Shown: positions 13,447 to 24,835, counted from the first letter of the stretch. The stretch: 25,689 nt of DNA from Nitrospinota bacterium (GCA_046581755.1 JAYGFR010000305.1:1-25689); one strand, 5' to 3'. A program made the numbers and translations. Notes: generated by a model from the sequence alone, not told the origin.

Positions 13447-13506
13447 ATCGACGAATCTGATCTGGGGCATGCCGCCGCGGAAATGAGAAAAAATAAAGGA
13501 GTCGCC

Positions 13507-15192
13507 GTGGGCTATCGCCGGCCGGTTCGGATCGTCCTTTCCTCCATCCTTTGTGTCCTGGCATGGGACGCTCCTTCGCATGCCGCCTCGATTCTGGATT
13601 TGATCCGGCCCACCGCCGAATTCTTCCGGCCCACCGGCAAGAAGATGGACCCCGTGGTGGTCCCCGAACGGCCCGGAAGCGCGGAGGAGGCGGAGGCCCC
13701 CAAGCTCAACCTCTTGTTCACCGGCGTCATGGGAGAGGGATGCGGCAGGATCGATGAAGTGCTCAACCAGGTAATCCGCGAGGACAAGAAGCACCTGACG
13801 GCCTTCCGTCTTCTCTCCGAGGCCAAGCTGAGCGAGGCCACCGACGATCGGGATTACTCCCTCGCGGACTACGCCGCCGCCCACTACCGCCTCGCCCGCG
13901 AGGCCGGCCGGAAGGCGGGCGCCGATTTCGTATACATCGTCCACCGGGGTAGGTCGTCCGGCGCCATTTGCACCTACACCCACTATCTCGTGAGCGTGAA
14001 CGATCCCCAGGACGTGTTCGAGGTGGAGGTGGATTCGGTTAGCGCCAAGGATTACATGGAGGACACGGACGAGGCCCGCGAGGCGCTGTTTGGAAATAAG
14101 GCCTTGGCATCCATCCGCCGGGCGCTGGACCGCAAGGCGAAAAAGGTCCCGGACAAGGAGCTGGCGGAAAAAGGGGCCGGGCCCGGCCGGGTGACCGCCC
14201 AGAGCCGCCAGGATCCAATCGAGCGCCCGGCCGCCGAGAAAGGGGGGAAGGCGGGAGAGTCCCCCCACCGGGCCACCTTCCGTGAGATACAGAACGAGCG
14301 CGAGCGCCTGGCCGCCGAGCGCCTCCGCTTCGCCGAGGAGGATTTCCTTCGCGAGGAGGCCGAGCGAAAGCGCAAAAAAGAGCGCACCCGGCTGGCCGAT
14401 CGGATCCGGAAGATGGAGGAGCAGCGCCAAGAGGAGAAGGCACGCCGCAAGGCCGAGGGAAAGCGCAAGCAGGAGGCCTCGGCCCAGCTCTCGCTCCGGA
14501 AGGAATTGGCCGCTCTCAAAAAGAAGCTCGAAGCGATCGAGCGCCGGGGGGTGGCCCCGCTGCCCTGGAGGTCCTCGGGCTCGGGGTTTTATTTGCGGGG
14601 CTCGCGCCACATCATGACGAGCCTTCACGTCGTGAGCGGGGCGAAGGCGATCCAGGCCACCTTTCCCAACGGGGAGCGCTACCGGGGACGGGTGGTCGCA
14701 AGGGATAAGAACAACGACCTGGCCGTGGTCCGGCTCGAGGGGATGAAACCCAAGAAGAAGGGCTTCCAGGTCCGGTTCGGGGTGCGGGTGCGCGTCGGCG
14801 AGCGGGTGCATGCCCTGGGCTATCCCCTGGGCTCGGAGGTGAGCCGGAATCCCAGCATGGTCTCGGGCGAGGTGAGCGCCACGACGGGGATGGGGGACAG
14901 CATCTCCCAGTTCCGCATGACGGCGCCGATCAACTCGGGGAACAGCGGCGGTCCCATCCTCAACGCCAAGGGCGAGCTCATCGGCGTCTCGGCCTCGGGC
15001 CTCATCAAGCGCGGGGTGGAGGGGGTGCGCTTCGGCGTCAAGGCATCCGCCGCCGCCCTGGTAATCGATCAGGTTTCCGTGGTCGGGAATTTCGATGTCG
15101 TGGTGAAGGCCAAAAAAAGGGATCGCCCGCCCACCCCGCCGGAGATTTTCGAGGAATTCTCCCCCTACGTCGTCATGGTCGAGGTGCGCTAG
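13507..15192 (+). CDS. Secreted trypsin-like (S1C/Trypsin_2) serine protease with an N-terminal alpha/beta domain and coiled coil, no PDZ
   Basis: AAGGAG before GTG 13507 (track start 13483). Signal peptide ending SHA; GSGF, TSLHVV (His), NNDLA (Asp), GNSGGP (Ser); E/K/R-rich helix. Confidence 0.9.
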   Translation: MGYRRPVRIVLSSILCVLAWDAPSHAASILDLIRPTAEFFRPTGKKMDPVVVPERPGSAEEAEAPKLNLLFTGVMGEGCGRIDEVLNQVIREDKKHLTAFRLLSEAKLSEATDDRDYSLADYAAAHYRLAREAGRKAGADFVYIVHRGRSSGAICTYTHYLVSVNDPQDVFEVEVDSVSAKDYMEDTDEAREALFGNKALASIRRALDRKAKKVPDKELAEKGAGPGRVTAQSRQDPIERPAAEKGGKAGESPHRATFREIQNERERLAAERLRFAEEDFLREEAERKRKKERTRLADRIRKMEEQRQEEKARRKAEGKRKQEASAQLSLRKELAALKKKLEAIERRGVAPLPWRSSGSGFYLRGSRHIMTSLHVVSGAKAIQATFPNGERYRGRVVARDKNNDLAVVRLEGMKPKKKGFQVRFGVRVRVGERVHALGYPLGSEVSRNPSMVSGEVSATTGMGDSISQFRMTAPINSGNSGGPILNAKGELIGVSASGLIKRGVEGVRFGVKASAAALVIDQVSVVGNFDVVVKAKKRDRPPTPPEIFEEFSPYVVMVEVR

Positions 15193-17273: not shown

Positions 17274-19318
17274 GTGGAACAGTGCGTAAACATTGGCCGT
17301 GCACCCGAATCCCTTGGAGCCCGTATACGCCATCGCCTGCCATTTCTGGGAGTTTTTTTCTCTCTCGCAATATCCCTGCTTGGGGGCCGCTCTCCGCCCC
17401 CGCCGCTGGTGGAAATGTCCGTGTGCTGATCTTCCAAGAGATCATCAGGGGCTCCCAGTCGGAGTTGTACCCCGGTTTGTCGGAGCCGATATCGAATTTC
17501 CTGGCCCGGAAGCTGAACGCCATTCCCGGCGTCGAGGCCGTGATCGAAGCCAGGCCCTCCCAGCCCATCCTCAACGAGGTGGAGGAAACCGGGTTCCGCC
17601 GCTACCTGGAGATCGCCAAGCGGAAGAAGAGCGATTTTCTGCTGTTCACCGAGATATTTTTCAAATACGAAACTTTCGACCACGAAGACATCATCACGGC
17701 CCTATTGCTGGATGGTTCGACGAAGAAATTTCTGAAATCCGAAATGGCCGATGTCGAGTTGGTGAGTGCGGATCAGTTCCTGGATTTCCCCTACCGCGAC
17801 ATACTGAAAACTTTCTACGCCGGGTTTTCGAGGAAAATAACGCCCGGCTTGCGGTCGGCGGTGGCGCGGCGCGGCGGGCCACCGGCCCCCCCCGGCGAAA
17901 GCGGTGGCCAAGGCCCCGGCCCCTCCGGCTCAGCCGGAGCCAGCCCCCCAAAAGGCCGGCGATAGGCCTCCGGCCGCCAAGGCCGATTCCGAGGCGGAGA
18001 AGGAGCGCATCGCCGCCGCTCCCGAGAAATCCCTCGAACAAGACGCATCCGCCGCACCGTCTCCAGTCCGGGCGATTGGCGCACCAAGATCCTGTATACG
18101 GGCATGTTGGGCTCGGGATGCGGAAAAAGGCCGAATGAAAGGTTCACCGAATCGGCCCGGAAAAAACTCGGGCGAAACCCCAAATTCGACTTGCTCAGTG
18201 AGGACCGGCTCCATCAGGCCACCGGCGGAAACGAGTATTCGATAGAAGACTACTCGAAAGATGATTTCCGCCTCGCCCGAAGGATCGGCAAAAAGGCCGG
18301 CGCCGAATTCGTCTATCTCCACCAGCGGGAGTCGGCAGACAATTTTCGGGGGTGCATCACCACCTACTACATCGTGGTGGTGGCCGATCCGGGCGCCTTC
18401 TTCAAAGCGGAGGCCGTTTGGACCCCGGAAATGTCCAAGGTTGAGCGGCTCCAGGTATATAGGAAGGCCCGCAAGGTCCTCTTCCGGAAGGCCTGGCCCG
18501 CGCTCCGGCGGGCAAGGGCCCGCAAGGCGCGGCGGGCGTTGGTCCGCGAGGCGAAGAAGGAAGCCCCCCTCCCGAGGGCCCCGGCGGGGCCGGACCCCGA
18601 CATGCTGGCCCGCCTCCAAAGGCTCGAAAAAGAGATCAACAGGCTCAGGAGCCAGAAGGGAAGCGCCCCCGCCCCCGGAAGCGCCCGGAGCGCGTGCGTT
18701 GAGACGCTCTGGCGATCGGCGGGCACGGGATTCTACCTCAAGGGCACCCGCCACATCATGACGAACCTCCACGTCGTGGGTTCGGCCACCCAGATCCGCA
18801 TCAGCTTTCCCCAGGGCGGGACCTACACCGGGATGGTGATCGCGCGCGACGCGAACAATGATGTCGCCATCGTCCGCCTTCAGGGCATGAGCCTCAGGAG
18901 CAAGGGGTTTTACGTGGACCTGGCCGCCTCGGTCGAGCCGGGCATCCGGGTATTCGCCATCGGGTATCCCCTGGGCTCGGGGATCAGCATCGTCTCGGGC
19001 GATGTCAGCTCGGCTACGGGCCTGAACCAGAACGCCGCCAAGTTCACGATGACGGCGCCCATCAACGAGGGGAACAGCGGGGGGCCCGTGATCGACGATA
19101 CCGGCGCCCTCGTCGGGATCGCCCAGGGCGGCCTCGTCCAGCGGGGGGTGGAGGCGGTGCGCTTTGGCGCGAAGATATCGACCGCCGCCATCGCGCTCAG
19201 CCAGGCCCGGATCATGCAAAAGTTTTCCATCCATGTGGTCCCGAAAAAAAAGACCCTCAGCTCGCGGGACATCTTTCGGAAATTCTACAAACACGTCATT
19301 CGGATCGAGGTGCGGTAG
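17274..19318 (+). pseudogene. Second secreted trypsin-like protease, interrupted by three apparent 1-nt frameshifts (intact catalytic ORF 18104..19318)
   Basis: GTG 17274 with RBS and an upstream TATAAT gives the signal-like RIRHRLPFLGVFFSLAISLLG. Frame shifts at G5 (17382-17386), C8 (17886-17893) and near 18060. Triad TNLHVV / NNDVA / GNSGGP; colinear with 13507..15192. Confidence 0.75.
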
Positions 19319-19370: not shown

Positions 19371-20068
19371 TCAGGCCAGGTCGAAGAGAAGAATCCGCGC
19401 GGATTCGATGGGGGCGATTTCGAGGGCCTCCTCCTCGCTCACGGCGGCACCGTCCCCCTCGGTTAGAATCTGTCCGTTGAGCGCCACCGTTTCCCGCGCC
19501 ACCTGAAGCCAGGCGTGGCGATCCGGGGCCAGGGCATATTCCACGGGCGTTTCCGGTTCGAGGACCGCCGTAAACAGACGAATATCCTGATGAACGGGTA
19601 GCGCACCGCCGGCCCCCTCTCTTGCGGCGAGGAGTGTAAGCTTTCCAAGCTGGCCCTCCTCGGGAAAGGAGCGCTCGGCGTAGCTGGGTTCGAGCCCTCC
19701 CCGGTCCGGGTCGATCCATATCTGAAAAAACCAGACGGGTTCATCCTCCGAGCCGTTGTATTCGCTGTGGGTGATGCCCGACCCCGCGCTCATCACCTGC
19801 ACATCGCCCGGCTTCAGGATGGAGACCGAGCCCAGGTTGTCCTTGTGGGCGAGCGACCCCTCGAGGACGAGGGTGACGATTTCCATGTCGCCGTGGCTGT
19901 GGGTGCCGAAGCCCCCGCCCGGGGCCACCCGGTCGTCGTTGATCACGCGGAGATTGCGGAATCCCGGATTCTCCGGGTCGCGGTATTCGCCGAACGAAAA
20001 TGAGTGGCGGCTGTCCAGCCAGCCGAGCTGGGTGCGGCCGCGCCGATCGGCGAGGTGTATTCGGTCAT
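19371..20068 (-). CDS. Pirin-family protein (YhhW-like), 1-nt frameshift just after the start codon
   Basis: RGRTQLGWLDSRHSFSFGEY, LRVINDD, GFGTHSHGDMEIVT, MSAGSGITHSEYN, FQIWI. ATG 20068 is one base out of frame with the body. Confidence 0.9.
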
Positions 20069-20183: not shown

Positions 20184-20972
20184 CTACCGGATGACGGCGA
20201 ATTTAGGCGCGCGCTCCTTTTTGGCGGTCCTCGCGCAGCGGAAGCCGACGATCTTCCAGCGGATGATTCCGTCCAGGCGGAAGCGGGTGGCGGCGCGGAG
20301 CATCTCGGGCGAGTTGCGGTAGGAGCCGCCCTTGATGGTGTGAAGAAATCCCGAGGGAGGCCCCTGGGGATTCCGCGCCGGGGCCTCGCGGTAGTAAAAC
20401 TCTCCCCAGAAATCGCGGGTCCACTCCCAGACACCCCCCGCCATTCCCCGCGCGCCGTAGAGGCTCTCGCCGCCGGGGCGCCCGCCCACGGGGACGGGCT
20501 TCGTCACGCCGTGGGCCACGCGGGCGGGATCGAATTCGTTTCCCCAGGGGTAGCGCCGGCCGTCGGGGCCGCGCGCGGCTTTTTCCCATTCGGCCTCGGT
20601 GGGCAGGCGTTTTCCGGTCCAGCCGCAATAGGCCGCGGCGTCGCGCCAGCTGATGCCGACGATGGGAAGCTCCGGGCGGTGGAGAGCGGGGTCGGAGGCG
20701 TATTTCGAGGGGCGGTGGCCGGTGGCGGCTCGGAAACGCTCCCACCCGGCGACGGAAACCTCGTCGCGATCGATCCAGAAGGCATCGAGGTGAACCCTGC
20801 GGACGGGAAGCTCCTGGAGCGGGCCGTCGCGGCTTCCCTGGATGAAAGCGCCCGCTTGAATGAGGATCATCTTCTCGAAGGCGCGCAAAAGGCGCTCCAC
20901 CGCGCCCGTGTTGCGCATCCCGGACAGGGCGGCCAGGATCGCGATGACCAAGACTCCGGCGCCGGCTGCCAT
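20184..20972 (-). CDS. FGE/SUMF1-fold protein (NirV/PvdO-like), N-terminally anchored or exported
   Basis: AFWIDRDEVS, PIVGISWRDAAAYC-x-W-x-GKRLPTEAEWEKAARG, YPWG, MAGGVWEW, GGSY, GFRCA. The catalytic Cys pair of true FGE is not present. Confidence 0.9.
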   Translation of the reverse strand: MAAGAGVLVIAILAALSGMRNTGAVERLLRAFEKMILIQAGAFIQGSRDGPLQELPVRRVHLDAFWIDRDEVSVAGWERFRAATGHRPSKYASDPALHRPELPIVGISWRDAAAYCGWTGKRLPTEAEWEKAARGPDGRRYPWGNEFDPARVAHGVTKPVPVGGRPGGESLYGARGMAGGVWEWTRDFWGEFYYREAPARNPQGPPSGFLHTIKGGSYRNSPEMLRAATRFRLDGIIRWKIVGFRCARTAKKERAPKFAVIR

Positions 20973-20978
20973 AACGGC

Positions 20979-21770
20979 CTACTTCTTCTTGCGTGGCTTT
21001 CCGTTGATGAATGTTTCCCGCACATAGCGTACCACGCCCCAGATTTCCTTGTCGTTCAGGATGTGGCCGTAGGCTTTCATGAAGTCGAACTTCTTCACCG
21101 TCGTCGCCTCGAGGCGGCCCATCTTGATGAGGGCGAAGAGGAATTCATCGTCGAACCGCTCCATCTGCTCTTTGAGGGTGTAGTTCATCGGCGGTGGCTG
21201 GATCTCGCTCACGAAGGGCTTGCCGAGGGGCTGATCCCCTCGGGGGCGCTCGCCGTCGCCCCTGCCCTTGAAGCCGTGGCACTGGGAGCAGGCGTCCTTG
21301 AAAATTTCGGCCGACTCGGGGTCGTTGATTTTTTTACCGGACGTGATGCCCCGCTCCCATTGGATCAGCTTGCGGATCTGGGGCTCCTCGAGCACCTCGC
21401 CGAAAGAGGGCATTGCCGTTGGGGTGGCCCCCTTGAGCTTCATGCCCTTGGTCTTCCCGAGGAGGACGTTGATCTTGCCGAACTTGACGATCATGAACAT
21501 GTAATCGTCCGTCATGCGCTTCATGTAGGAGCTGGTGAAAACCTGGGGCCGGGGGCGCGAGCTCCGGAAGCTCGGACCCTTTCCGTCGCCCTTGAGCCCG
21601 TGGCACGAGAAACAGATCTCCTCGAAGATCTCCTTGCCGAGCCAGTAGTCGCCCTTTTTCAGTTCGGCCTGGGGAGGGGGCTTAGCGGCGAGTGCGGGGG
21701 CGGCGAGTGCGGCGAGGAGGCCCAGGGCCAGCCCCGCGATCCCCGTTTTGAAAAGCGTTTGACGGCTCAT
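20979..21770 (-). CDS. Periplasmic dihaem cytochrome c
   Basis: Signal peptide ending ALA; CFSCHG-x2-GDGKG and CSQCHG-x2-GRGDG; candidate distal Met in AMPSF and FMKAY. GAGG RBS before ATG 21770. Confidence 0.9.
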   Translation of the reverse strand: MSRQTLFKTGIAGLALGLLAALAAPALAAKPPPQAELKKGDYWLGKEIFEEICFSCHGLKGDGKGPSFRSSRPRPQVFTSSYMKRMTDDYMFMIVKFGKINVLLGKTKGMKLKGATPTAMPSFGEVLEEPQIRKLIQWERGITSGKKINDPESAEIFKDACSQCHGFKGRGDGERPRGDQPLGKPFVSEIQPPPMNYTLKEQMERFDDEFLFALIKMGRLEATTVKKFDFMKAYGHILNDKEIWGVVRYVRETFINGKPRKKK

Positions 21771-21943
21771 GAAATCGATTTCCTCTCTCGGTTTCGGGTC
21801 CAGGCGAAACTCGGGCGCGGAAGAAGCCAATTCCTCTTCCGCGCCCGGTTTTTACTGTGGCCCGGACGCTTTTGCAATGTTTCCGTTACGCGCGGGCGGC
21901 CGTACCTATCCGAAATTGCCCGCGGCGGGGCGCCGGCTCCCGG

Positions 21944-22521
21944 CTACTTTCGGGCGCACGGGTTGCACGGATTTTTCGCCGCGCACGGGTTGCAGGGGTT
22001 CGAGCCTCCGCCGGTGCGCTTCACGGTCTTCATGAAGGCCTTGCGCTCTTTCTCCCAGGAGAGCATCCGCTTGTATTGGCCCGGGGAGAGGGAGGTGACG
22101 TAGCTCTCGAGGTCGCGGTAGTCCTGCGAGTAGGGGTCCATCGGCGCATTGCCGATGAATACGGTGGCGCACAAGTCGTTGAACTGGCCCACCGAAATGA
22201 TCTGGTTCGCCGGGCTCAGGCGCGGAAAGTGCTCGGTCGCGCCGACCAGGGTGGGGATGGGCACGGGGTTCCGGTTGCCCATCACGTCCACGGCCGTGCC
22301 TCCCACCGTGCGCCCGCGCGGATGGCCTCCCACGCAGCCTACGTCGCGGAAAATTTTCTTTCCCCGCTTCACGGAGTCGACGACGGTGCTGTCTCTCCTC
22401 TGGTGAAGAAAAACGCCGGCGGAGTGACCGTTTTTTTCTTGGCGATCTGTTTTGTGGCGGCTTGAGGCGCCGCCAGCGCCAATGCCAGGGCGACGGCAAG
22501 AATTGTACAGGTTTTCCTCAT
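21944..22521 (-). CDS. SoxA/TsdA-like His/Cys-ligated haem c domain with CxxGH and a C-terminal NPC-repeat tail, frameshifted near 22400-22440
   Basis: GGAGG before ATG 22521 gives the signal peptide MRKTCTILAVALALALAAPQA. The body lies in the adjacent frame: RGKKIF-x4-CVGGH...PTLVGA-x2-HFPR...FNDLC-x7-APMDP-x-S-x4-DLESYVTSLS, with tail [18 protein letters not shown]. Confidence 0.7.
21947..22000 (-). repeat. NPC repeat block (4 Cys)
   Basis: Encodes [18 protein letters not shown]. Confidence 0.95.
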
Positions 22522-22584
22522 TTTTCACCCTCCACGATTGAACGAATTTCGGTTCAAAATTCCCGCCGAATCGGGCTTCCGTTT

Positions 22585-23232
22585 TTACTTGCCCGCGCAA
22601 GGGTTGCAGGGGTTCCGCCCCGCGCAAGGGTTCTTGGCCGCGCACGGGTTACTGGCGGCGCATGGATTCGCCGCGCACGGGTTGCAAGGATTTCCGCCCC
22701 CGCCGCTGCGGGCGTAGATGAAATTGGCTTTGAAATAATTGCCCCGGGCCTGGGTGGAGATGTTGACGGACATTCCCGGTTTCAGGGATTTGGCGCCGAC
22801 GACCTTGTTGCCGACGCGGGTGATCGTCAACTTCTGGAGGTGAACGCTCACCATTTTGCCGTCCGAGGAGCGGACATTCAAATAATTCCCTTTATAGCCG
22901 ACCACCTGGCCGACAATCATGACGCCTTCCATGCGGGCCGAGGCGCCGCCGCCGCACGGGTTGCAAGGATTGCCCGCCGCACAGGGGTTCTTCGCCGCGC
23001 AGGGATTGCAAGGGTTACTTGCGGCGCAAGGGTTTTTCGCCGCGCAGAGGTTCTTGGCTGCGCACGGATTGGCTGGGCAAGGGTTTTTCGCCGCGCAAGG
23101 ATTGCAAGGGTTCTTCGCCGCGCACGGATTGGCTGCCGCATCGGCGGGCGTCACCATGGGCGCCGCCGCCGAGAGGGCCAGGGCGAAAAGCGCTCCGAGC
23201 GAGAGGGTCAAGGTCCGTCGAAACATGATCAT
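22585..23232 (-). CDS. Secreted NPC-repeat Cys-rich protein with a central beta-rich (OB-fold/DUF5666-like) domain
   Basis: GGAGGTG RBS (start 23232 or 23226). Signal peptide ending ADA; 12 N-terminal and 7 C-terminal N(P/L)C units around IVGQVV...LKPGMSVNI...FKANFI. Confidence 0.85.
22588..22692 (-). repeat. NPC repeat block (7 Cys)
   Basis: [35 protein letters not shown]. Confidence 0.95.
22954..23130 (-). repeat. NPC repeat block (12 Cys)
   Basis: [59 protein letters not shown]. Synonymous codons vary between units. Confidence 0.95.
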
Positions 23233-23465
23233 TTCACCTCCGTAAATGAGCGATTGGAATCAAATCCGGAAAAACTCGCCCAGAAATGGCGAATCACCGT
23301 AATAGAACAATCCTTTTGCCGAATTGTATCCTATTTGAATGATGAGATAGATAACGCTCTTAAGTTGGAAACACCTAATTTAGGGACTTATTCCTTGGAT
23401 AGAGGGGGAAATAAGAGAGAGCAGGGGGAAGGCGCTTGTTTTGCTTTATATTCGTCGCCCCTCTT

Positions 23466-23891
23466 TCACGGCAGGAGCTGGAACCCCAGAATCGCCACCA
23501 TAAGCGAGACGAACACGGCGATAAACGCGCAAAAGGCATGAATCTGGCGGATATCCTCCCTGCCAGGGGCGAGGCGCAGCTTGCGGCCCAGGTAGGCGGT
23601 CCCCAGGTAAAGGGAGAGGGAGAGGGTGCCGAAATAGCTGTGCGCGGTGGCGAAAACGGGCTCGCCCAGGAGGAAGCGCATCCCCAGCGGCCCCAGGAGG
23701 TAGCCCGCCGTGAGGCACGCGGTGAAGCATCTGGCCAGCCGCATATGATGGGCCGCCAGCCGGGCGGTATGGGGTCCGGCCCCCTGGCGGCGGCTCTTTC
23801 GTATCCGCAGGCCCAGGACCAGCAGGTACAACCCGAGAATGAGCGCCGACGTCTGGAGGGCGGGATGAAAAAACGCTAGGGCTCGGCTCAA
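23466..23891 (-). CDS. DUF4079-like four-helix membrane protein (possible cytochrome b)
   Basis: Four TM helices, each carrying His (FFHP, AAHH, TAHS, QIHA), and C-terminal GFQLLP. GGAGG 10 nt before TTG 23891. Confidence 0.7.
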   Translation of the reverse strand: MSRALAFFHPALQTSALILGLYLLVLGLRIRKSRRQGAGPHTARLAAHHMRLARCFTACLTAGYLLGPLGMRFLLGEPVFATAHSYFGTLSLSLYLGTAYLGRKLRLAPGREDIRQIHAFCAFIAVFVSLMVAILGFQLLP

Positions 23892-24040
23892 ATCAAATAT
23901 TCCTCCGTCGCTGGTCGTAGGATTGGAAATTCCGGCATTGCCGCATGGCCCCGTGAAGTCTAAGATGCGGCTACCCGATATTCCAGAGCTATTTTGCCCA
24001 GAGTTTTTTTTGCTATTCCCCGAATCCATTGAGAGTGCCG

Positions 24041-24835
24041 ATGAACTATGAAGATTTATGCTCATTCGTCCGAGGGAGCCAGGTGTTCGACCTGGGGGTG
24101 GACCTGTTTCCCGGAATGCCCCACGTTCCCACTCATGCACCGTACGGTTTTACGCTGAACCGCGAGCACGGCGACCTGATGCTCCCCAGCGGGGCGTGCT
24201 CGGCCGTCGAAGCCATCTTTTGCACGGGCCACACCGGAACCCACATCGACGCCCTCAGCCACTATTCCATGGACATGAAGCTTCACGGGGGGATCGCCGT
24301 GAAGGATGTCCAGAGCAAGACCGAGGGCATGAAGGCGCACGGTATCGAGACGGTGGCGCCCTTTGTCCAGCGGGGGGTGATGCTCGATGTGACGGCGCAT
24401 CTGGACAAGGAAATCCTCGAAGGGGGATTCGGGATCGGCCCCAAGGAACTCGAGGCCGTCGCGGAGGCCCAGGGGGTGCGCATCGAGGCGGGCGATGTCG
24501 TCCTGGTCCGGACGGGCCAGATGCAGCAATGGCCGGGCCGGAACTATTACTTTCAAGAGAGCGGCCAGCCCGGCGTCAACATCGACGGGGCCCGGTGGCT
24601 TTCCGGCCGCGGGATTCGCATGGTGGGCACGGACACCTACTGCGTCGAGGTCCGGCCCGAACCCGCGAGCCCGGTCCACGTCCACATGCTGGTGGAGTCG
24701 GGAATCTATCTGCTCGAAATCGTGAATCTCGAGGAACTGAGCCGGACGAAGACCTACGAATTTCTTTTCGTGGCCATGCCGCTGAAAATCAGGGGGGGTA
24801 CGGGCTCGCCCGTCCGTCCCGTGGCGATTGTGTAG
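24041..24835 (+). CDS. Cyclase-family metal-dependent hydrolase (kynurenine formamidase-like)
   Basis: HTGTHIDA, GDVVLVRTG, PG, VGTDT, VH-x2-ML-x3-GI-x2-LE, PLKIRGGTGSPVRP. Confidence 0.92.
   Translation: MNYEDLCSFVRGSQVFDLGVDLFPGMPHVPTHAPYGFTLNREHGDLMLPSGACSAVEAIFCTGHTGTHIDALSHYSMDMKLHGGIAVKDVQSKTEGMKAHGIETVAPFVQRGVMLDVTAHLDKEILEGGFGIGPKELEAVAEAQGVRIEAGDVVLVRTGQMQQWPGRNYYFQESGQPGVNIDGARWLSGRGIRMVGTDTYCVEVRPEPASPVHVHMLVESGIYLLEIVNLEELSRTKTYEFLFVAMPLKIRGGTGSPVRPVAIV

Follow-up and report, generated by a model that had tools for sequence, protein, structure and literature searches.

TsdB is the dihaem electron acceptor of the cytochrome TsdA. The TsdA haem is ligated by His53 and Cys96, and a fused dihaem acceptor has been mentioned for this enzyme (PMC6879331). 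Promoters of the SigH and SigR regulons follow the consensus GGAAY-N17/18-GTT, and SigH regulons respond to hypochlorite (PMC5430705). Within the literature that we searched, natural ligation of haem iron by selenocysteine (Sec) is confined to one P450 family, and no characterised operon matches the gene arrangement described below, which a first-pass annotation had likewise not recognised as a known pathway.

That arrangement lies in a stretch of 25,689 nucleotides from a Nitrospinota bacterium (GCA_046581755.1 JAYGFR010000305.1:1-25689), the whole of which is here called the window. All counts across relatives given below are inflated by relatedness.

Gene layout and the two cytochromes

Five co-oriented genes occupy positions 20184-23891 on the minus strand and are trailed by a pirin gene, as the first-pass annotation had described. 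The DUF4079, dihaem cytochrome c (two CxxCH), FGE-sulfatase and pirin domains each score above their own Pfam cut-offs, and gene order, on whose conservation that annotation had staked its proposal, is kept in relatives. The fixed core of the unit is a monohaem cytochrome c with the TsdA/SoxA fold and a His/Met dihaem cytochrome c. The monohaem gene (21944..22521, minus strand) encodes a tail of NPC repeats and is broken in the window but intact in relatives. The dihaem gene (20979..21770, minus strand) is intact and conserved and encodes two class I domains with conserved Met, for which His/Met ligation is predicted twice.

The dihaem gene directly follows the monohaem gene in 63 of 64 loci, a constancy that agrees with the earlier proposal of a partnership, and its product is likely to be the electron partner of the monohaem protein. 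A predicted complex of the two points weakly in the same direction, scoring 0.53 against 0.00 for the best control. In calibration, 116 of 157 solved pairs and 2 of 215 mismatched ones reached the mark applied; 18 of those solved pairs and both mismatches did so with scores of 0.60 or below. Prediction runs agreed on 98% of contacts, with a partner pLDDT of 84. The dihaem gene remains without the monohaem gene in three genomes (G002, G019 and G022); in the last two, DUF4079 directly adjoins it, and a functional link between these two proteins is possible.

A sequence search of solved structures with the monohaem protein returned only the CxxCH region of peroxidases, so fold searches were needed. 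The best match among 48,161 chains was the TsdA haem-1 domain (4v2k; Z 9.4, rmsd 2.9, 93 aligned), with SoxA at Z 9.2, and a second fold search gave the same top match. Of 20 aligned homologues, 16 contain PF21342 at E<=0.1. The SoxA model TIGR04484 did not match proteins P0002, P0042 or P0043, and distant homologues reached 26-55 bits against a cut-off of 110. The earlier remark that sox genes are missing holds for soxA throughout the window genome. Each protein of the family has one CxxCH in about 200 residues, that is, a single haem domain and not a chain of two.

The column of the predicted distal haem ligand is invariant in relatives, being either Cys or TGA, and aligns with the Cys of the SoxA motif QMINAC via homologue P0039. 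Together with the fold, this column supports the earlier idea of a His/Cys-type haem. Four residues ahead of the ligand stands Met, Leu or Phe in 70 of 70 sequences, resembling the first haem domain of SoxA, and the arginine of an H[YF]PR motif ahead of the ligand is invariant in the same number. We strongly infer that Sec or Cys binds the haem iron opposite the CxxCH histidine. Judged by residue offset from the ligand only, Asn and Tyr stand where TsdA has Arg109 and Arg119, and these residues combined with the SoxA-like motif make thiosulfate chemistry doubtful and a non-catalytic role possible.

Contrary to the first-pass annotation, the window's own haem gene is not intact. Its start at 22521 has a GGAGG ribosome site and a signal peptide, yet a one-base frameshift near 22400 ends the frame after 50 codons, and the haem attachment motif (22322..22336, minus strand) reads CxxGH (CVGGH) where relatives have CxxCH. 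An intact form of the proposed electron chain is not supported in this genome. The frameshifted frame recurs in two other near-identical records and CxxGH in one other, with a clean dihaem gene in such records, so that assembly error, as judged from assembled records, is unlikely to be the sole cause. Near-identical records carry 16 distinct substitutions in 128 monohaem core columns versus 3 in 216 dihaem columns. The monohaem gene is broken and probably decaying in the window genome, whose lineage carries the Cys form.

The ligand codon in relatives

The ligand codon is TGC in the window (22169..22171, minus strand), and the window's monohaem gene thus has no in-frame UGA there. Most relatives have TGA, a predicted Sec codon, which stands in frame at this position in 65 of the 80 metagenome loci and in 6 of the 19 genomes that match. 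Across 100 loci the codon was TGA in 70, TGC in 17, TGT in 4 and unreadable in 9; no other codon, and neither TAA nor TAG, was found among them. The in-frame UGA aligns with the conserved Cys of homologues, and the reading frame is conserved for 50 residues past it.

A hairpin of the SECIS type follows the TGA and contains a compensatory pair in all 58 distinct sequences. Its stem is formed by positions 17-21 and 27-31, and 56 of the 58 have the loop CGTGA. At the synonymous pair 18-30, 40 sequences have T-A, 18 have C-G and none is mismatched; this is the best of 990 pairs of variable sites (next best 0.84), and the pattern requires only about three switches on the tree, counted by eye. The rare Arg codon CGT is used in 54 of 56 sequences versus 8 of 248 upstream. 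Bacterial SECIS criteria call for a loop of 3-9 nt with G in one of the first two places, a position 16-37 nt after the UGA and an MFE of −7.5 or below; the hairpin of relatives matches this model (PMC13188914), with a 5-nt CGUGA loop, a spacing of 18 nt and energies of −9.3 to −12.2 kcal/mol in four folded examples. By themselves these energies do not stand out (z −0.7 to −2.1). In Cys-type genes much of the stem persists without the conserved loop, and the hairpin at the corresponding place in the window (22138..22158, minus strand), where the stem is retained, is a possible SECIS relic.

Among the genomes examined, selA is present in 34 of 35 and in 5 of 6 of the TGA type. A tRNA-Sec scored above 70 bits in 5 of 7 and in 4 of 6 TGA-type genomes; G008 and G022 (88% and 67% complete) had no match over the cut-off, and G022 also lacked selA. 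A reassigned genetic code can be set aside, as the same genes also terminate in TGA. Taken from sequence, these observations strongly indicate that TGA is read as Sec in relatives, and the distal ligand in most of them is likely to be Sec, giving a His/Sec-ligated c-type haem. No such protein appears in a 2026 catalogue of 119 selenoprotein families. Gene callers stop TGA-type proteins at the TGA (119 of 120 among the matches listed), and the family is consequently hidden in databases as fragments of 119 residues.

The Cys forms make up one clade (100/100), which was drawn within the Sec forms in one tree. In a test on 37 rows, however, Sec forms as a clade were not rejected (p-AU 0.65) and the constrained tree scored higher, so the gene tree leaves the direction of the Sec/Cys change unshown. 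By host rank, Cys is restricted to the window genome's family and Sec is found in some of that family and in two further families, which suggests, on host ranks alone, that the Sec form is the older.

NPC repeats, promoter and neighbouring genes

Upstream of the monohaem gene lies a gene (22585..23232, minus strand) for a secreted NPC/OB protein composed of a signal peptide, an N-terminal NPC array, an OB-fold core and a C-terminal NPC array, with 19 Cys and 18 NPC units in total; the monohaem gene encodes four further units, C-terminal behind a Gly linker. The repeats are genuine. All 22 matches to the NPC codon pattern in the window fall in these two genes, against about 3 expected (shuffles: mean 3.0, largest 8). 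The first-pass annotation had described these two neighbours as sharing one Gly-linked tag; the second gene is broken here. The 84-residue OB core between the arrays (predicted structure, pLDDT 90) matched generic OB folds at Z up to 9.0 with no standout and has no conserved His, Met or Cys; one OB core matches CusF (E 7e-4).

Repeat number differs among near-identical records, the cysteine tail is missing from 14 of 53 complete Sec-type monohaem proteins, and in G002 the NPC tail survives as a bare peptide. NPC tails also occur on P460 cytochromes, YceI, DM13-like and membrane proteins, and the tag is therefore not specific to the monohaem cytochrome. Cultured NPC-bearing bacteria include Aestuariispira and Pelagibius. 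One more tail, at G000:C351 in the window genome, is on a protein that we take to be MerT-like. Pfam and NCBIfam gave no family above cut-off for P0002, the NPC/OB protein or the NPC peptides. Literature searches with NPCAAK-like terms yielded unrelated papers only and found none on DUF6969.

A predicted ECF sigma promoter of the SigH/SigR type (GGAAT-N17-GTT; 23370..23394, minus strand) lies 162 nt before the NPC/OB gene. The same motif precedes 8 of 8 scored orthologous NPC-OB genes (about 5 distinct sequences) versus 7 of 440 other genes, and a sigma-70 scan found no promoter. The ECF sigma factor adjacent to the unit in relatives' loci is closest to SigH among solved structures and has a zinc-finger anti-sigma alongside; the window genome has two candidate cognate sigmas. 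Judging by motif and neighbours, the unit is likely to be switched on by thiol stress. The first-pass annotation had noted neither this promoter nor the predicted Sec codon in relatives.

Three of the genes first assigned to the unit have a looser connection with it. DUF4079 (23466..23891, minus strand; PF13301, E 2.4e-10) is a cytochrome b561-like membrane protein with four conserved His, and one of its relatives matches Cytochrom_B561 (E 1.2e-7). Proposed as an obligatory member, it instead sits upstream of the promoter; 23 of the 24 family genomes have it, including 7 with neither cytochrome, and it was not found in two class-level relatives that have the operon. It is probably transcribed separately, as an optional neighbour of the unit. 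The FGE-sulfatase-fold protein with an N-terminal anchor (20184..20972, minus strand; PF03781, E 1.3e-50) falls under the NCBIfam cut-offs of EgtB, SenA, PvdO and GldK, and only the generic PF03781 passes. Several near-identical records have its gene split at residue 143; it is frequent without being obligatory (17 of 78 loci of the monohaem family and 15 of 77 other NPC loci). Pirin (19371..20067, minus strand) appears in none of 20 related loci and must be regarded as a bystander, not an operon member.

Several other genes recur near the family or its repeats. An ExtKL-like pentahaem cytochrome, which is not in the window, accompanies 20 of 78 monohaem-family loci. It has five CxxCH in 16 of 16 sequences, scores 57-67 bits against the NF040886 cut-off of 250, and has no Cys outside CxxCH in its mature part and no Sec or Cys at the matching loop. 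A weak match to ExtS of the Geobacter sulfur-reduction operon was also seen (E 2e-4). TlpA-type thioredoxins and cupredoxins are each found in 14 of 78 loci, YeeE transporters in 8 of 77 NPC loci (one, in L188, with its own in-frame TGA) and ArsS-like radical SAM proteins in 4 of 77. Among the recurring neighbour clusters scanned, there were no MsrP/Q-like genes and no DUF692 (MNIO) genes beside Cys-rich genes; no Sox genes recur at monohaem-family loci.

Possible function and comparison with known systems

We see an even chance that this is a periplasmic unit, induced by thiol stress, in which the predicted distal ligand of the monohaem protein forms or breaks S-S bonds on the cysteines of NPC tails and electrons pass to the dihaem protein. 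Such a scheme would build on the observed gene order, folds, conserved ligand position, TGA with its hairpin and promoter motif, and on the iron being bound, on the side away from the CxxCH histidine, by Sec (very probably decoded from TGA) or Cys. If TsdA and SoxAX are a guide, the ligand might leave the iron and accept a sulfur species (sulfide, polysulfide or persulfide, with thiosulfate less likely), then pass the sulfur to an NPC cysteine, either in cis on its own tail or in trans on the NPC/OB protein, in the way that SoxA loads the SoxY arm. The His/Met dihaem protein would act like TsdB and receive the electrons. Lineages other than this one may use the pentahaem wire, TlpA-type thioredoxin and YeeE transporter to recycle tails and move sulfur, and a SigH/SigR-like ECF sigma would induce the unit under thiol-oxidising stress. 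Tentatively, and at somewhat less than an even chance, we further propose that a periplasmic sulfur pathway, so far undescribed, has as its catalytic centre a natural His/Sec c-type cytochrome that is widespread among uncultured bacteria of groundwater, soil and marine habitats. In that pathway NPC repeats, fused to many proteins, would be a portable arm that carries several thiols and stands in for SoxY; the window lineage would have the Cys form and be losing it.

The tails might instead be sacrificial thiols for hypochlorite, peroxide or electrophiles, re-reduced or isomerised by the Sec/Cys haem and dihaem proteins with no inorganic sulfur substrate. The SigH-type promoter, the zinc-finger anti-sigma, the TlpA-type thioredoxins, the freely varying tail number and the bare peptide of G002 would all suit such scavenging or repair. 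We nevertheless consider it rather unlikely, given that a His/Met dihaem is more apt as an electron acceptor than as a donor (established for TsdA haem 2), that YeeE and ExtKL-like neighbours indicate sulfur species, and that MsrP/Q-like genes do not recur. It is improbable that the monohaem protein is a non-catalytic low-potential electron carrier or redox sensor, its His/Sec or His/Cys haem tuning potential or binding gas like the first haem of SoxA while the tails have another purpose. The SoxA-like motif fits such a protein, as does the fact that the catalytic arginines of TsdA are not evident, but a costly Sec codon and a constrained hairpin are retained across several lineages, where retained Sec codons are typical of catalytic redox residues (PMC13188914), and the H[YF]PR arginine is invariant.

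Much the same doubt, or slightly more, attaches to metal or metalloid handling, with the tails binding Cu, Hg, As or Se in the manner of metallothionein and the cytochromes setting their redox state. This would explain 19 Cys in flexible arrays, a tail on a presumably MerT-like protein, the cupredoxin and ArsS-like neighbours and the CusF match; it is opposed by an OB core devoid of conserved His, Met or Cys and by a promoter of the thiol-stress type. Copper binding in particular, suggested earlier, finds little support among neighbour genes, as no copper efflux or DUF692 cluster recurs in at least 3 of the 77 NPC loci tabulated. A genuine stop at TGA, which would make the TGA-type genes truncated or pseudogenes, is very improbable. 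Gene callers do terminate there and hairpin energies are modest, but TAA and TAG never replace TGA, 50 downstream residues are conserved in frame, synonymous sites covary as a stem and selA is present.

If true, His/Sec ligation of a c-type haem would add a new coordination to the SoxA/TsdA family, and a small exported protein that occurs naturally in both Sec and Cys versions would allow direct comparison of selenium's contribution to haem-thiolate sulfur chemistry. NPC repeats form a widespread tag that has no name as yet, and the genes beside them suggest testable substrates and a regulator; the window illustrates the loss of such an operon.

The monohaem protein shares its fold and the positions of CxxCH and distal Cys with the TsdA haem-1 domain (4v2k, 4wq7), and like TsdA it has a dihaem partner. 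TsdA differs in having two haem domains instead of one, and equivalents of its Arg109 and Arg119 are not evident here, where most members have a Sec codon and the unit has an NPC tail and a stress promoter. The SoxA-type domain recalls SoxAX, and the flexible Cys arm behind its Gly linker, a possible acceptor of sulfur groups, recalls SoxY; however, the monohaem protein is far under the SoxA cut-off, soxA is absent from the genome, Sox neighbours do not recur, and the arm has many Cys and is fused to a cytochrome. The MccSep/ExtKL polysulfide reductase of Geobacter sulfurreducens is also a periplasmic c-type cytochrome with Sec and a SECIS, engaged in sulfur redox, but in MccSep Cys binds the iron with Sec beside it (PMC13510729), whereas here Sec is the predicted ligand in a monohaem protein; the pentahaem neighbour has neither the extra Cys nor Sec. 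The Sec-ligated P450 family M of Entotheonella similarly has UGA at a haem ligand position, a downstream SECIS and truncated database entries, yet it is a cytoplasmic monooxygenase of P450 fold with a proximal ligand and non-covalent haem (PMC11703216), compared with the distal ligand and covalent c-type haem predicted here for the periplasm. Finally, the locus resembles the SigH/SigR-RshA/RsrA regulons (PMC5430705) in its GGAAY-N17/18-GTT promoters, related sigma factor and zinc-finger anti-sigma, and differs from them in that its targets are exported cytochromes and cysteine-repeat proteins and its anti-sigma appears to span the membrane.

Gene order and probable decay in the window

The operon examined here is real, conserved and, in the literature searched, not previously described. 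On the minus strand lie, in the order that the first-pass annotation gave, DUF4079 (23466-23891), a secreted NPC-repeat protein with an OB-fold core (NPC/OB; 22585-23232), a haem-domain gene with an NPC tail (monohaem; 21944-22521), a dihaem cytochrome c (20979-21770), an FGE-sulfatase-fold gene (20184-20972) and a pirin, and a cyclase-family gene (24029-24835) diverges from DUF4079. The NPC repeats proposed for two adjacent proteins were recovered as 22 matches, all within those two genes, against a mean of 3.0 in shuffles, an excess much larger than chance would give. The source genome (G000; 4.2 Mb, 96.5% complete) contains three more NPC-bearing frames, and close homologues carry the Nitrospinota label in their source records. 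At 13483-15192 and 18104-19318 are two genes for trypsin-like proteases whose N-terminal parts are unrelated.

The haem domain was matched in 19 of 40 relatives, and several genera keep DUF4079, NPC/OB, monohaem, dihaem and FGE in this order, with the divergent cyclase upstream. Pirin, found in 0 of 20 loci, is not supported as part of this unit. Recurring neighbours in 78 loci (genomes and metagenome loci 2.2 kb or longer, including duplicates and cut contigs) were dihaem (64), BNR beta-propeller (45), NPC/OB (32 plus 8), ExtKL-like pentahaem (20), FGE (17), DUF4079 (15), and TlpA-type thioredoxin, ECF sigma, anti-sigma and cupredoxin (14 each). The dihaem follows monohaem in 63 of the 64 loci with 700 nt of downstream sequence. 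DUF4079, originally counted as a member, occurs in 23 of 24 family genomes, seven of them without either cytochrome, and its pair with the cyclase is the family's conserved chromosomal context; the operon-bearing genomes G029 and G030 gave no match to it. A dihaem paralogue directly follows DUF4079 in G019 and G022 (L246, L247), with no monohaem, and these two genes are possibly a separate b-type/c-type electron pair; this adjacency counts against a clean separation of DUF4079 from the cytochromes.

The operon is of the cysteine-ligated SoxA/TsdA kind in altered form, and the window holds a cysteine-type copy with its key gene broken. From its start at 22521, monohaem encodes a signal peptide and then a stop after 50 codons, and the haem domain resumes in a different frame from about 22400. 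The gene first described as a haem protein with an NPC tail is frameshifted, and its haem motif reads CVGGH. We compared 16 near-identical records from databases: two repeat the frameshifted frame, one other has CxxGH, and some of the rest have changes at conserved sites. With records of an apparent sister species omitted (3, 2 and 1 rows), we counted 16 distinct substitutions in 128 columns of the monohaem core (13 records), 11 in 215 of FGE (13 records) and 3 in 216 of dihaem (10 records); FGE is also split at residue 143 in several near-identical records. From this sequence comparison we read monohaem and FGE as under relaxed selection in the window's species. In G002, of the same genus (L245), the stretch from the first NPC array to the monohaem tail is gone, so that OB core and monohaem are missing between two arrays and a bare NPC peptide precedes an intact dihaem; repeat-mediated deletion or assembly collapse could either one produce such a layout. 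The single YeeE match of G000 (L244, contig C158) has an internal TAG stop, perhaps through the same decay.

The predicted haem ligand and its codon in relatives

Structure comparison of the monohaem core model (pLDDT 82) gave as best matches TsdA, over its haem-1 domain (Z 9.4, rmsd 2.9, 93 aligned), and SoxA (Z 9.2). TsdA also leads the Foldseek ranking, at an E of only 2e-3. Only CxxCH and a single Cys further on are invariant in the core; that Cys aligns with a SoxA Cys via a homologue. The ligands in TsdA are His53/Cys96, of which Cys has a catalytic role (PMC6879331).

The codon of this predicted ligand is TGA in six genomes (G008, G012, G022, G025, G029, G030) and Cys in 12, as also in the distant 19th match, G039. 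In 80 metagenome loci retained of 82 confirmed it is TGA in 65, Cys in 9 and unreadable in 6; one of the two search patterns demanded Cys, so any bias works against TGA. TAA and TAG never occurred there in the genomes and metagenome loci examined. A hairpin follows the TGA in 58 distinct TGA-type sequences (stem 17-21/27-31, numbered from the UGA's U; CGUGA loop in 56) and agrees with the bSECIS model (PMC13188914). Stem positions 18-30, both of them synonymous, pair as T-A in 40 sequences and as C-G in 18 and never mismatch, counts that are inflated by kinship (about three switches on the tree, counted by eye); of 990 variable-site pairs in the 56 sequences whose context is complete, this one scores highest (next 0.84). 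The hairpin's Gly, Arg and Glu codons are nearly fixed, its folding z-scores are modest, and Cys-type genes retain part of the stem. We found selA in 34 of 35 genomes and tRNA-Sec above 70 bits in 5 of 7; in G012 the tRNA-Sec gene (L028:5467-5559) lies on the other strand, immediately after the operon. A truncated-product search gave 188 clusters, and 119 of the 120 matches listed stop at the residue before TGA; named organisms among the matches listed are Candidatus Binatia or Deltaproteobacteria. It is highly improbable that TGA is a true stop, and we are nearly certain that it is read as Sec in TGA-type genes, where Sec is predicted with good confidence to be the haem iron ligand.

TGA-type monohaem is a probable new selenoprotein family. 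The SoxA/TsdA-domain monohaem is absent from the catalogue of 119 selenoprotein families (PMC13188914), and no NCBIfam 20.0 model matches it above cut-off; the groundwater survey of Deng et al. (2026), cited in that review, could list it among its candidates. Cys forms make up one clade of the gene tree, which does not fix the direction of Sec/Cys change.

An adjoining YeeE/YedE sulfur transporter (L188:11145-11423) has an in-frame TGA within its G-x-x motif, probably Sec, YeeE/YedE being an already catalogued selenoprotein family. Adjoining DUF3179 and deiodinase-like genes (L031:3416-5026, L167, L225, L028), in two frames apiece, are possibly further selenoproteins. For a second TGA immediately ahead of an NPC tail, at a Gly position (L026:9802-9804), a nonsense change is likelier than Sec.

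Predicted regulation and NPC proteins elsewhere

A GGAAT-N17-GTT motif lies between DUF4079 and the NPC gene (23394-23370) and again ahead of an NPC peptide on G000 contig C82. We found it ahead of all 8 of the orthologous NPC/OB genes that were scored (about five distinct sequences) and of 5 of 37 propeller genes, compared with 7 of 440 other frames. In relaxed form it stands before 17 of another 29 NPC genes and before 13 of the 14 adjacent ECF sigma genes, compared with 54 of 439. The nearest solved structure to the adjacent ECF sigma is SigH, whose consensus, GGAAY-N17/18/19-GTT, and response to thiol oxidation are described in PMC5430705. On C82 (L001:7173-8881), the stand-alone secreted peptide with its motif is followed by an ExtKL-like pentahaem, and both probably belong to the operon's regulon.

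Scanning one genome for each species yielded at least 127 NPC stretches; carriers among the matches listed are P460-type and SoxA/TsdA-type cytochromes, YceI, membrane proteins and stand-alone peptides. At 77 loci of at least 2.5 kb among the matches listed, the commonest neighbour was DUF6969 (35; L038-L116), on which no paper was found in the literature searched, followed by FGE-fold (15), YeeE (8), DUF302 (5), and DUF3179 and ArsS-like (4 each). By these counts the suggested FGE association persists across phyla (15 of 77), a sulfur-transport link is modest (YeeE, 8 of 77), and no copper genes recur beside NPC proteins at these loci. G000 also has a second NPC peptide frame whose start is not clear (L002:7059-7334, contig C212) and a membrane protein with an NPC tail (L003:6453-6812, contig C351), presumably MerT-like; a TGA upstream of this membrane protein may also encode Sec.

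Predicted function and known systems

We give about an even chance to the prediction that the operon is a stress-induced periplasmic sulfur-transfer unit, and likewise hold it a balanced question whether its substrate is a sulfur species. The Sec- or Cys-ligated haem would form or break S-S bonds on the cysteines of NPC repeats, and its putative electron partner is the dihaem, which has two conserved Met following its CxxCH motifs; a predicted monohaem-dihaem complex (score 0.53, control 0.00) lends this weak support. Oxidant scavenging and repair is a rather unlikely alternative role. A non-catalytic carrier or sensor is more doubtful still, and so, by a similar measure, is metal binding; the OB-fold core of the NPC protein has no conserved metal ligands.

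As first supposed, the arrangement is not a described pathway in the literature searched, which lay mostly outside subscription journals and supplements. A natural Sec-ligated P450 is reported (PMC11703216), and MccSep has Sec beside a His/Cys haem (PMC13510729); the pentahaem homologue next to the operon has neither MccSep's Sec nor its haem-ligating Cys, and the pentahaem of L001 likewise has none of MccSep's catalytic residues. Although the sulfur-transfer unit belongs to neither SoxAX-SoxY nor TsdA-TsdB, because it has one haem, no Sox genes and no evident counterparts of the TsdA arginines, it is proposed, by analogy, to work as they do.
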